57,676 bases of DNA from an uncultured Candidatus Saccharibacteria bacterium. GTDB lineage: Bacteria > Patescibacteriota > Minisyncoccia > Phycocordibacterales > Zambryskibacteraceae. Below are positions 37,017-40,267 of this stretch, in pieces. Position numbers and translations under genes: made by a program. The stretch lies in the NCBI GenBank assembly GCA_964608585.1, contig CAZSOL010000001.1, positions 15,990 to 73,665 on the forward strand. Direction: 5' to 3'. The stretch's first letter is position 1. Every line of letters begins with the position of its first letter. The notes beneath the pieces were generated by a model, which was not told where the DNA came from, made no database searches, and was given only the letters and a program-made list of their open reading frames with translations.

Positions 37017-38021
37017 ATGAATTTTTGGAAAAGTTTGAAGAAGCCAATAATGGTTCTAGCTCCCATGGCCAACGTCACCGACGTGGCCTTCCGTCGTATC
37101 ATTGCTAAGTATGGGAAGCCCGATGTTACTTGGACAGAGTTTGTCTCGGCCGACGGTTTAGCTCTTGCTCCAGAGGAGGGGAGGAAGAAATTACTAAAGG
37201 ATCTTGAGTACATTGACGCGGAGCGTCCTATAGTCGCGCAGTTCTTTAGCTCCTCGCCTCAGAACATGAGGAAGGCTGCAGAGCTTGCGCGCGAGCTTGG
37301 CTTTGATGGAGTAGATATCAATATGGGGTGCCCCGACAGAAGTGTGGAGAAGCAGGGTGCTGGTGCGGCACATATCAAGAACCCCAAGCTCGCGCGCGAG
37401 GTTATCCGTGCTGCTAAGGAAGGAGCAAGAGACTTGCCAGTGTCGGTTAAGACAAGAATCGGTTACAACAAGAACGAGTTAGAAACTTGGCTACCAGAAC
37501 TTCTTGCTGAGAGCCCAGCGGTAGTCACTGTCCACGCTCGTACAAGGAAGGAGATGAGCAAGGTTCCGGCTAGATGGGAGCATATAAAGAGGGCTGTAGA
37601 GATACGTAATGAGATGGGTGTAGATACTTTGATATTTGGTAACGGAGATCTTAAGGATATAGAAGATGCTAGGAAGAAGTGTAAGGAGACTGGTGCAGAC
37701 GGAGCGATGTTGGGGAGAGCAATATTCGGTAACCCGTGGCTCTTTGCTCCACTTCGACAAAATGAGTTGTCTGCTCACGGTCAAGAGGGAAATTCGCGAC
37801 CAACTCATTTTGTTTCAGTTGAAGAGAAGTTGAGAGTGATGGTAGAGCATACCAGAGCTTTTGAAGAGCTCTTGGGAGGTATGAAGAGCTTTGCTCTGAT
37901 GAAGAAGCACTATAAGGCCTATGTGAACGGCTTTGATGGAGCAGTGGACTTGAGGGCAAGACTGATGGAGGCAGATAATGCACAAGAGGTGAGTGACATA
38001 GTAGAGAGGTTTTTTGTATAA
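37017..38021 (+). CDS. dus: tRNA-dihydrouridine synthase
   Basis: 334 aa: LAPMANVTDVAFRR, DINMGCP, VSVKTRIG, VTVHARTR. Confidence 0.88.
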   Translation: MNFWKSLKKPIMVLAPMANVTDVAFRRIIAKYGKPDVTWTEFVSADGLALAPEEGRKKLLKDLEYIDAERPIVAQFFSSSPQNMRKAAELARELGFDGVDINMGCPDRSVEKQGAGAAHIKNPKLAREVIRAAKEGARDLPVSVKTRIGYNKNELETWLPELLAESPAVVTVHARTRKEMSKVPARWEHIKRAVEIRNEMGVDTLIFGNGDLKDIEDARKKCKETGADGAMLGRAIFGNPWLFAPLRQNELSAHGQEGNSRPTHFVSVEEKLRVMVEHTRAFEELLGGMKSFALMKKHYKAYVNGFDGAVDLRARLMEADNAQEVSDIVERFFV

Positions 38022-38022
38022 T
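37993..38022 (+). promoter_or_regulatory. Promoter of candidate sRNA B, overlapping the dus stop codon
   Basis: GTGACA, N18, TATAAT (38017-22) with TG immediately upstream. Confidence 0.5.
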
Positions 38023-38028
38023 TGAGAG

Positions 38029-38231
38029 ACACGAGCAGTAGACCACTCTTTCTTGGGAGGATACATGATCCAAGGATATGTCTGAGGCTGCGTGAAGGCC
38101 TGATCTGGTGGGGGTCAGGCGTATGAGTACCAGTGCGTAGTGTCCGGGGGGAAGCTACGCACTGGTATACCCCCACCACATATGTGCCAATGGGGCACGA
38201 TACATGACACCACGAAGTGGTGTCTCTTTTT
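38029..38231 (+). ncRNA. ffs: Candidate small RNA B (~200 nt), possibly SRP (4.5S/scRNA-like) RNA
   Basis: A long helix pairs GGTGGGGG with CCCCCACC and encloses a perfect 13-bp stem, TACCAGTGCGTAG/CTACGCACTGGTA. The apex GTCC-GGGG-GGAAGC (38141-38155) resembles SRP helix 8 (E. coli UACCAGGUCAGGUCC-GGAA-GGAAGCAGCC, recalled from memory). It lies upstream of dnaX, as scr/ffs does in many bacteria. The RNA ends in a terminator. Confidence 0.45.
38206..38231 (+). terminator. Rho-independent terminator of sRNA B
   Basis: GACACCACgaaGTGGTGTC followed by TCTTTTT. Confidence 0.75.
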
Positions 38232-38243
38232 ATAAAACTTGAT

Positions 38244-38272
38244 TTGACAAAAAAGGTGAGGTGTGCTAAGCT
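38244..38272 (+). promoter_or_regulatory. Promoter of candidate sRNA C
   Basis: TTGACA (38244-49), N17, TAAGCT (38267-72) with TGc extended -10. Confidence 0.6.
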
Positions 38273-38278
38273 TAAGAG

Positions 38279-38435
38279 AGGTTGGTGGCAATAAGGTCTG
38301 TGGCCACGTACGGCAGATGCGTCTGTGATGAGGGCCCGGAATCCCTCTGATCGACAAACTCCGTCCGTGGCCCAGACAGCCACACCACGTACCACAACTT
38401 ACGAGGTCCCAAATATGGGGCCTTTCGCTTTTTAT
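38279..38435 (+). ncRNA. Candidate small RNA C (~155 nt) with a C/D-box-like K-turn motif, class unknown
   Basis: It has its own promoter and terminator. A long irregular hairpin pairs GTCTG-t-GGCCACG-t-ACGG with CCGT-c-CGTGGCC-CAGAC. The apical element GTGATGA-GGG-cccggaat-CCC-t-CTGA (38325-38350) would allow tandem sheared G.A pairs and a U.U pair next to GAGGG/CCCTC. Confidence 0.55.
38404..38435 (+). terminator. Rho-independent terminator of sRNA C
   Basis: AGGTCCCaaatatGGGGCCT followed by TTCGCTTTTT. Confidence 0.7.
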
Positions 38436-38450
38436 AAATTTCTATAGCCT

Positions 38451-38479
38451 TTGACAAACTTAAGCTTTTATGATAAGAA
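38451..38479 (+). promoter_or_regulatory. Promoter of the GC-rich Big_2 lipoprotein gene
   Basis: TTGACA (38451-56), N17, TAAGAA (38474-79) with TGa extended -10. An AAGGAG SD lies 6 nt before the ATG at 38530. Confidence 0.55.
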
Positions 38480-38529
38480 GATAGGCGGAACGTTCCAACA
38501 CATCCAACTCAAGCTACAAGGAGTAGCAT

Positions 38530-39183
38530 ATGCGAACCAAGCGGTTGGCTGGACTCGCGACCTTCTTGGTCGCCGTCCTTCTCTCGATGTCTGCTTGCTT
38601 GAACGAGCAGATCATCAGTCCTCCCAGCTACTGCGAGGTCAATCTTGACCTCGTGGTGACGAACTCTGGCTCAGCTCTTCCTATCGGAAGCTCTGACACC
38701 GTGTCGGTCGTGCAGACTGACAACTGTGACACGCGGTATACCTTCAACTTCGTGTCGAACAACGGCCACGTCTCTGTCACGAGACTCAGCCCTACTTCGG
38801 CACAGGTTACTGGTGTCTCGGCTGGCACCTCGGTCGTCACTGTGACGGCGGTGGAGGACACGAGTCGGCAGTTCCTCGTGACCTTCGTGGTCCCGAGCAC
38901 TTCGTCGGCTAGCTCCATTGACTACACGCCACACTCGGGCGCCTTGGCTGTTGGGGACTCTGTCCTTGTCACAGCTCATTGTGTGCAAGGGTCGGACATC
39001 TCCGAGGCTTGCAACCCATTTTGGACGTCTTCTGACCCAGGAACTGTCACGCTTCGTGGCACTGGGCCAAATGGCACCGGCATGACAGCTTGGATGAAGA
39101 GGATCAAGGCTGGATCTGTGGGACTTTGTACTCAGTGGTCACGCACACGGAGTACTCCACAGAGGTGTTACACCAGATCCTAG
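38530..39183 (+). CDS. GC-rich lipoprotein with bacterial Ig-like (Big_2-like) repeats; the 3' end may be frameshifted
   Basis: Signal peptide plus lipobox (LLSMSAC). SSDTVSVVQ...AQVTGVSAGTSVVTVTAVED is a typical Big_2 pattern. A second repeat ends in an Arg-rich tail (TQWSRTRSTPQRCYTRS), while another frame reads SVVTHTEYSTEVLHQIL. Sampled lines are 53-67% GC. Confidence 0.65.
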   Translation: MRTKRLAGLATFLVAVLLSMSACLNEQIISPPSYCEVNLDLVVTNSGSALPIGSSDTVSVVQTDNCDTRYTFNFVSNNGHVSVTRLSPTSAQVTGVSAGTSVVTVTAVEDTSRQFLVTFVVPSTSSASSIDYTPHSGALAVGDSVLVTAHCVQGSDISEACNPFWTSSDPGTVTLRGTGPNGTGMTAWMKRIKAGSVGLCTQWSRTRSTPQRCYTRS

Positions 39184-39191
39184 GTATCGTG

Positions 39192-39230
39192 GCCCCAGAG
39201 ACAGATTATTGTCTCTGGGGCTTTTCGTTT
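39192..39230 (+). terminator. Rho-independent terminator
   Basis: GCCCCAGAGACagattattGTCTCTGGGGC (11-bp stem) followed by TTTTCGTTT. Confidence 0.85.
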
Positions 39231-39244
39231 ATAATACTTTGCAT

Positions 39245-40267
39245 ATGTCAGTCCTCTATAGGAAGTACCGCCCCAAGACGTGGAAGGATGTTACAGGGCA
39301 AGACCCCATAGTCTCTGTCTTGAGTAATCAGATCAAACTCGGCACAGTAGCTCACGCCTATCTCTTCGCTGGCTCTCGCGGTACAGGCAAGACCTCTGTA
39401 GCGAGGATCTTTGCGAGTGAGCTCAAGACAAGCCCAAGCGATGTCTATGAGATAGACGCCGCCTCCAACAACGGCGTGGACGAGATGCGACAGCTTAACG
39501 AGGCTGTGCATACCCTACCTTTCAACTCCAAGTACAAAGTCTACATCCTAGACGAGGCTCATATGCTCTCCAAGAGCGCTTGGAACTCCTTCCTAAAAAC
39601 TTTGGAGGAGCCTCCAGCTCATGTCATCTTCATTCTTGCTACTACAGAGTTAGACAAGGTGCCTGAGACTGTGCAGTCTAGGTGTCAGTCTTTCGTTTTC
39701 AAGCGACCCAGTAGAGAGGTCTTGAGAGAGTTTGGTATAAACATCGCTAAGGCCGAGGAGAGGAAACTTGCTAAAGATGCTGCCGAGCTCGTAGCTCTCT
39801 TAGGAGATGGTTCTTTCCGCGACACGCACGGGATACTAGAGAAGGTCTTTAGTAGTACCAAGGAGAGAGAGGTTACTCGAGAGGAGGTGGAGAGAGTTAC
39901 CGGAGCGCCAAACTTTGCTTTGGTACAAAATATTTTGGAAGCTATAGTAGACCAAGATCTTGAGAAGGGGATGCGAGCTATAGCTGAGGCGAGGAGGACA
40001 AATGCCGATATGAAGATCTTTAGTAGGCTTATCCTTGAGCATCTGCGTTACCTCTTCCTCATCCGTCTTAAGGCAGGGCTAGATAAGGATATTGAGGAGG
40101 AGACCTCAGAAGACGAGTTCAAGCTATTGAAGTCGTTGGGAGACAAGCCTGCCAAACATTTGAACGCCACTATTTTAGTAAAGTTTATAGAAGCTGTAGA
40201 CTCTGTCTCTACCACGACCATCCCCGAGCTTCCACTTGAGATTGCACTAGCTGAGAGTATTTCTTAA
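39245..40267 (+). CDS. dnaX: DNA polymerase III subunit gamma/tau (short, gamma-like)
   Basis: LYRKYRPKTWKDVTGQ, LFAGSRGTGKTS (Walker A), YILDEAHML, TLEEPP, SRCQ. I prefer the ATG at 39245. The track start at 39209 lies inside the upstream terminator. Confidence 0.9.
   Translation: MSVLYRKYRPKTWKDVTGQDPIVSVLSNQIKLGTVAHAYLFAGSRGTGKTSVARIFASELKTSPSDVYEIDAASNNGVDEMRQLNEAVHTLPFNSKYKVYILDEAHMLSKSAWNSFLKTLEEPPAHVIFILATTELDKVPETVQSRCQSFVFKRPSREVLREFGINIAKAEERKLAKDAAELVALLGDGSFRDTHGILEKVFSSTKEREVTREEVERVTGAPNFALVQNILEAIVDQDLEKGMRAIAEARRTNADMKIFSRLILEHLRYLFLIRLKAGLDKDIEEETSEDEFKLLKSLGDKPAKHLNATILVKFIEAVDSVSTTTIPELPLEIALAESIS

Follow-up and report, generated by a model that had tools for sequence, protein, structure and literature searches.

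The window analysed here is a stretch of 57,676 nucleotides from a genome of about 460 kb that is 95% complete (G000 in what follows). In it, dus (37017-38021; PF01207) and dnaX (39209-40267; Pfam match to its own family) are separated by two tandem G+C-rich, ORF-poor units, here called RNA1 and RNA2, and by a lipoprotein gene. RNA1 lies at 38022-38235 on the forward strand and has a GTGACA-18-TATAAT promoter and a terminator. RNA2 follows on the same strand, with an inferred transcript of approximately 155 nt at 38279-38433, and the lipoprotein gene (38530-39183, forward strand) has a G+C content of 57% and no Pfam match.

The interval between dus and dnaX (38022-39183 in the window; loci L055-L084) is a hypervariable hotspot. 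The two genes abut in G075, G070, G078 and G054, and several genus g16 genomes have nothing in the interval. In other genomes, the space between dus and the lipoprotein promoter holds unrelated G+C-rich cassettes of small ORFs and RNAs, each cassette having its own TTGACA-type promoter and terminator. An earlier note on this DNA had described the lipoprotein gene as horizontally acquired, a description that does not fit its distribution: it sits at a like position in many relatives, behind a promoter, TTGACA...TGTGATAAGAAGAGG, that is conserved in many genomes of the family. Given these counterparts at a like place in many genomes, the gene is not a recent arrival in this one.

RNA1 folds strongly (z = -5.9) and has no match in Rfam. 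In its counterparts in G039, G040 and G030, a Shine-Dalgarno (SD) sequence is found with a very basic ORF of 35-36 amino acids (MA(A/R)K..KKGR..), after which comes a perfect hairpin whose loop is rich in G; the window retains only a 6-codon ORF of the basic peptide. Pairing between RNA1 and RNA2 was considered and rejected: duplex prediction on the complete sequences produced full-length pairings of no meaning, and relatives do not share the match between the two tips that the window shows.

A rod-like RNA between dus and dnaX

The RNA2 promoter was found by direct motif matches. Its -35 hexamer is TTGACA (38244-38249), its extended -10 element is TGcTAAGCT (38264-38272, hexamer 38267-38272), and the spacer is 17 nt. 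The promoter had been called consensus-quality; it carries an extended TGn, but its -10 hexamer, TAAGCT, matches the consensus at 3 of 6 positions, which kept the promoter off the promoter-scan list. TTGACA and the 17-nt spacer are present upstream of every homologue. G007 carries the identical extended -10 element, TGTGCTAAGCT; in the remaining homologues the hexamer is TATAAT or TATACT, at unchanged spacing. At the other end lies an intrinsic terminator with a 9-pair stem (5 G-C) and a T run (38403-38433; 38404-38435 in the earlier note), and equivalent terminator-type hairpins are found 3' of the homologues. The transcript limits of 38279 and 38433 are taken from the -10 element and the terminator, respectively. 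A look for the stretch among sequencing runs listed four DNA runs, from two studies, and none of RNA.

The segment is G+C-rich and ORF-poor, as had been noticed: its G+C content is 55% versus 46% for the window, and no ORF is kept across the homologues when their sequences are read by eye, with indels and stops that differ. The strand is the forward one, given the many G.U pairs and the covariance-model scores, which reach 100-152 bits on that strand and far lower values, 12-26 bits, on the opposite one. The predicted minimum free energy is -65.4 kcal/mol (z = -3.78), a value that none of 200 shuffled sequences equalled, and the fold has small internal loops only. Its conserved part is a rod (38296-38377), supported by both fold and covariation, in which the arm 38296-38313 pairs with the arm 38361-38377 and encloses the apical part. 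A long irregular hairpin had been read here by eye; the arms do pair as read, but both lie one base away from the numbers given. The GAGGG/CCCUC apical stem is where it was said to be (38330-38334 and 38343-38347, within the hairpin 38330-38347), and it covaries.

Homologues were sought by BLAST and then with a covariance model built from three sequences. RNA2 was found in 5 of the 22 genomes of the genus, namely G000, G039, G030, G040 and G020, with alike genomic context in all five, and a pattern search added a clear homologue 3' of dus in a genome of another genus (G016). In the alignment of the five, the share of paired cells is 92% and compensatory changes are seen at 18 of 33 pairs, a number reached by none of 500 column shuffles; sliding the structure by 1-3 columns as a control leaves 2-6 compensated pairs. 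Adding G016 gives compensatory changes in 20 of 32 pairs, so that covariation analysis, proposed in the earlier note as a check on the helices, supports them with five sequences and with six. Among the metagenome matches listed, one locus (L136) is a true homologue, near-identical to that of G040, and 119 of at least 120 matches are chance occurrences in high-G+C coding DNA; the 12-mer GGCCCGGAATCC has 27 matches in 401 genomes of the class versus approximately 10 for the reversed control, nearly all of them within genes.

The loop that closes the apical stem (8 nt, CCCGGAAU, 38335-38342) is the invariant part of the RNA and its proposed functional site. CCCGGAA is unchanged in 8 of 8 aligned hairpins and is also found in G040 and G016; altogether it caps six different stems in 10 genomes of 5 genera. 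The stems recorded are GAGGG in the window and CGAGG, CGGGG, GUGGGG (G016) and GGAGG (G007) elsewhere, with GUGCGA under the loop CCCGGAAAU in G023, GUCG under the variant loop GCCCGGAA in G005, and, in G045, AUUGGA and a stem length of 16 bp. The capped hairpins of G007, G005, G023 and G045 each form a module within a longer RNA that is bounded by a promoter and a terminator and has no Rfam match. The longer RNA in G045 (L348; G045:C6:15400-17900, minus strand) is an unannotated structured RNA of about 430 nt between efp and recA, with its own promoter and terminator, and contains the 16-bp hairpin. A covariance model of the hairpin alone was dropped because the loop varies from 7 to 9 nt in length, which puts pairs out of register in the MAFFT alignment.

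Compensatory changes in the stems, together with a loop that is invariant across genera, indicate purifying selection on structure and loop. The proposal of an independent structured RNA of about 155 nt, bounded by promoter and terminator, is thus borne out at the level of sequence by motifs, fold, terminator and covariation. By the same comparisons RNA2 is a new, lineage-restricted small RNA predicted to fold as one long rod-like hairpin, and it is close to certain that it is a selected structured RNA whose tip loop is functional.

Box C/D words and known RNA classes

The earlier note had read the apex of RNA2 as a box C/D-like K-turn, the element bound by L7Ae-family proteins. The two words are where it placed them: GTGATGA ('box C', 38325-38331, forward strand) and CTGA ('box D', 38347-38350, forward strand) flank the apical stem, and tandem G.A/A.G pairs and a U.U pair could form between them. 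However, this juxtaposition of RUGAUGA and CUGA across the helix, which is the likeness to box C/D sRNAs and K-turn ribonucleoproteins, is seen in this genome only. Neither word occurs at the aligned columns in any of the five homologues (G039, G030, G040, G020 and G016), which have GGUGAGUCGUCG...GCCGUUCCAC (G039, G030 and G020), GUUCGUCGUCG... (G040) or GGGUUCGUUUGG... (G016) instead, and the two G.A oppositions of the window are C-G and G-C Watson-Crick pairs in relatives. The geometry is imperfect as well. A canonical K-turn has a 3-nt bulge followed by tandem G.A/A.G pairs, with the C-stem adjoining on the other strand, whereas in RNA2 the GUC/GAC pairing of the C-stem leaves U and C opposite UGU, which makes a 3x2 internal loop, so that the G.A pairs and the C-stem are kept apart; the minimum free energy fold pairs the putative K-turn bases otherwise. 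The search of the 95% complete genome for an L7Ae/YbxF-like partner found none: the best PF01248 match, inside a 735-aa frame, scores 12.3 bits (E 0.045) against a cut-off of 22.1 bits.

The nearest known bacterial analogue would be TIGR-Tas, whose arrays in CPR bacteria, and also in phages, combine box C/D-like guide RNAs with Nop-domain proteins (PMC12045711); such systems are present in the host phylum. RNA2 differs from them in having no repeat-spacer array in 37800-38700, where the sole tandem repeat (score 36) lies in dus and the direct repeats around RNA2 are two terminator tails plus chance 13-14-mers. None of the three neighbours scanned has a Nop domain; Dus and DnaX match only their own Pfam families, and the lipoprotein gene matches none. 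That RNA2 is a K-turn RNA bound by an L7Ae- or Nop-type protein is thus barely credible, and its box C/D look is, on the evidence of the alignment, incidental: an accident of one genome.

Known housekeeping RNAs fare little better as an explanation. At the gathering threshold, Rfam matches only tRNAs and nothing in the region, and even at E <= 10 nothing relevant appears over RNA2, so the family search that the earlier note had called for matched no family; on eight relatives' loci, Rfam gave only a spurious MicX match (32 bits versus a cut-off of 75). A highly divergent SRP 4.5S RNA, 6S RNA or piece of tmRNA, missed by the Rfam models, could nevertheless be imagined, given that a gene for SRP RNA, 6S RNA or tmRNA was not found elsewhere in the genome (RF00169, RF01854 and RF00013 are absent from all of it). 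RNA2 resembles 4.5S RNA (RF00169) in size, in its single long hairpin and in having GGAA within its tip, and it lies upstream of dnaX, as ffs does in Bacillus. Unlike 4.5S RNA, it lacks the symmetric and asymmetric loops of that molecule and goes unmatched by Rfam even at the relaxed threshold.

The genome also lacks the protein partners of an SRP RNA: PF02978 and PF00448 have no match, TIGR00959 reaches 12 bits, and no DTAGR motif is present. Since Ffh and FtsY are missing, neither RNA1 nor RNA2 is an SRP RNA, which disposes of the earlier label 'SRP-like' for RNA1. RF00169 was found in 0 of 151 genomes of a class sample, and PF00448 gave only P-loop-level matches of <=24 bits, in 36 of 121 genomes. 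These results fit the loss of SRP already described for Parcubacteria: Nelson and Stegen 2015 state that no genome of that group yielded ffh or ffs (PMC4508563).

Nor does RNA2 have the features of the remaining classes. It has no large central bubble of the 6S kind and no tRNA-like end or tag frame of the tmRNA kind, although a canonical tmRNA of 269 nt, quite unlike RNA2, exists in another family of the class (L032). The RNase P RNA of the genome lies elsewhere (C1:151-457, 99 bits). ARAGORN found no tmRNA in the genome and Rfam only tRNA-level matches; smpB lies at the very end of a contig outside the window (G000:C6:9016-9432), and ssrA is probably in an assembly gap. The earlier note could not assign RNA2 to tmRNA, RNase P, 6S or SRP by eye, and the searches agree that it is none of these. 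RNA2 was moreover found in only 10 of 86 family genomes, with dus abutting dnaX in others, and we regard a housekeeping origin as very improbable.

The apical loop and SD leader hairpins

The CCCGGAA loop is complementary to UUCCGGG, a word found at the tip of SD leader hairpins before small, fast-evolving genes in 8 of the 10 genomes with the loop. In the five closest genomes that have RNA2, all 51 TTCCGGG sites were inspected. Five of them are the RNA gene itself, and each genome has exactly one site within a hairpin of a promoter-led 5' UTR, where the SD sequence forms the 3' arm of the hairpin. This leader hairpin has the form R-U-C-C-U-U/CCGG/G-A-G-G-A-Y, with the SD arm 6-9 nt before ATG, and its stem covaries (AUCC/GGAU versus GUCC/GGAC). 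The predicted CCCGGAA/UUCCGGG duplex has 7 bp and an energy of about -12.7 kcal/mol. Only CCGG is unpaired in the predicted leader fold, which means that the full 7-bp pairing needs two closing pairs to open.

In G000, the gene behind the leader is an orphan gene outside the window (G000:C1:173856-174067) that follows a GatB/YqeY-like gene and is the candidate target. The leader-bearing genes of G030, G039 and G040 are its orthologues. The product has 66 aa in G000 and approximately 130 aa in the three congeners (L215, L236 and L217), with a C-terminal motif DRHExQLPRGDR and no Pfam match, and only 5 clusters among 5.8 billion proteins match it. As a lone query, the 66-aa protein matched in 0 of 85 relatives, and a profile of the four orthologues was needed; with it, the gene was found in these four genomes among the 86, plus one weak match. 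In G020, G023, G005, G045 and G015, a like leader stands before unrelated small genes.

How often loop and leader occur together was counted by running two uniform patterns across the family's 86 genomes and reading the matches in context. Six genomes have both elements, two (G007 and G016) have the apex alone, two (G005 and G015) have the leader alone, and the other 76 have neither; G005, counted here as leader only, does hold the variant-loop RNA. By Fisher's test p is 1.6e-6, and treating the four orthologues as a single case raises it to 1e-3; as the genomes are kin, these counts overstate the evidence. In a test by prediction, G045, chosen only for its leader, proved to hold the CCCGGAA-capped 16-bp hairpin. 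No conclusion here depends on G029, a genome flagged as unpublished.

In G016, which has a clear RNA2 homologue, none of 60 inspected TTCCGGG sites is a leader and the 61st is the RNA gene. In G007, the only match to the leader pattern falls inside an 855-aa ORF, a result that comes from the pattern and not from its 84 TTCCGGG sites individually. In G015, where the leader is present, no capped hairpin was found among 20 sites judged by stem length or among 13 checked in the RNA sense.

Chance and word bias weigh on the same match. A random 7-mer would find a leader-loop context in G000 with p = 0.077, or 0.055 for G+C-rich words. Since UUCC resembles an anti-SD, GGG resembles an SD and CCGG is a palindrome, SD hairpins may hold the word for reasons of their own. 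A relaxed leader pattern gave approximately 110 matches versus approximately 90 for the control, without enrichment, and is thus uninformative; most of 20 loci inspected lie in coding DNA. TTCCGGG occurs 9-13 times per genome in G000, G039, G030, G040 and G020, versus 26-50 times for the reversed word, a deficit that is absent in G023, G038, G015, G045, G005 and G007. In G000, the frequency of CCGG is 0.77 of that expected from a Markov model. A CCGG-specific restriction system in this subclade may be the cause.

Possible modes of action

The reading that we put forward, tentatively, is that RNA2 may be a trans-acting sRNA that works by loop-loop pairing with the SD hairpin of the orphan gene. 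Transcription of RNA2 would start at a strong promoter of its own and stop at its terminator, and the exposed, invariant apical loop of the RNA, CCCGGAA(U), would be the functional site. The RNA would act in trans, its loop pairing with the UUCCGGG that caps the short SD hairpin (GGGAGGA) just before the start codon of the orphan gene. Because the pairing would cover the leading Gs of the ribosome-binding site, which lie 7-9 nt from AUG, an effect on translation initiation is expected, most likely repression, this direction being an expectation. What keeps us from a firmer view are the exceptions in G016, G007 and G015, the word bias, the chance probability of 0.077, the leader fold and the kinship of the genomes.

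Regulation by loop-loop 'kissing' is well known from OxyS-fhlA, CopA/CopT and RNA I/RNA II. Like OxyS and the plasmid antisense RNAs, RNA2 has a promoter and a terminator of its own and is predicted to form a stable stem-loop, whose short G+C-rich loop is complementary, over only about 7 bp, to a hairpin loop at or near the ribosome-binding site of its putative target. It shares with kissing-loop sRNAs a conserved structure without a conserved ORF, and the complementarity of its conserved loop to SD hairpins is predicted in 8 of the 10 RNA-carrying genomes. It has no sequence or structural homology to these RNAs, and it differs from them in being one 40-bp rod and not a multi-hairpin molecule, in having a CPR bacterium as host, and in that its type of leader sits on unrelated genes in different species.

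The same conservation could be explained by a protein. RNA2 may be a decoy, in which a protein that recognises CCGG/GGA-tipped hairpins binds SD hairpins and is titrated by the abundant rod, much as CsrA is by CsrB, or the rod may scaffold some other protein. A loop that stays invariant while its stems change suits protein recognition as well as pairing, CCGG is at the tip of both hairpins, and G016 has the RNA with no leader detected. RNA2 indeed resembles CsrB/RsmZ in its GGA-containing hairpin loop, which looks like the SD-region hairpin of an mRNA, but it has one loop, and thus one binding site per RNA, where the known decoys have many. No candidate protein is known, a CsrA signature was not found by a six-frame regular-expression search of the genome (a weak test), and a decoy does not require the exact 7-nt complementarity of the loop. 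A role of this kind is unlikely on balance. The same holds for an RNA2 with no trans target at all, a stable by-product, insulator or remnant of the hypervariable cassettes whose match to the leader arose by chance. Such a history would suit a hotspot that is empty or cassette-filled depending on the genome, an RNA whose model matched only 5 of 22 genomes of the genus, and a chance leader-loop match of 5-8% per genome; it sits poorly with the compensatory changes and invariant loop across genera, which point to purifying selection, with the conserved strong promoter and with a co-occurrence with the leader that exceeds chance by Fisher's test.

If loop-loop pairing is nonetheless the mechanism, the leader may be more than a feature of one gene. 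We suggest, as a rather doubtful extension, that the UUCCGGG-tipped SD hairpin could be a portable 'address label' that moves between unrelated, fast-evolving small genes, each of which would then be controlled by one abundant rod sRNA by way of a 7-bp contact between the loops.

Essentially no small regulatory RNAs have been described from CPR/Patescibacteria, and a literature search judged by title and abstract found no described sRNA or riboregulator in this group. The idea of a bacterial box C/D K-turn RNA, attractive as it was, proves wrong here, and the 'SRP-like' RNA next to RNA2 cannot be an SRP RNA in a lineage that lost SRP. In their place, RNA2 provides a covariation-supported RNA family with a concrete, falsifiable target prediction, and the address label, if true, would be the first sRNA-target pair in CPR.
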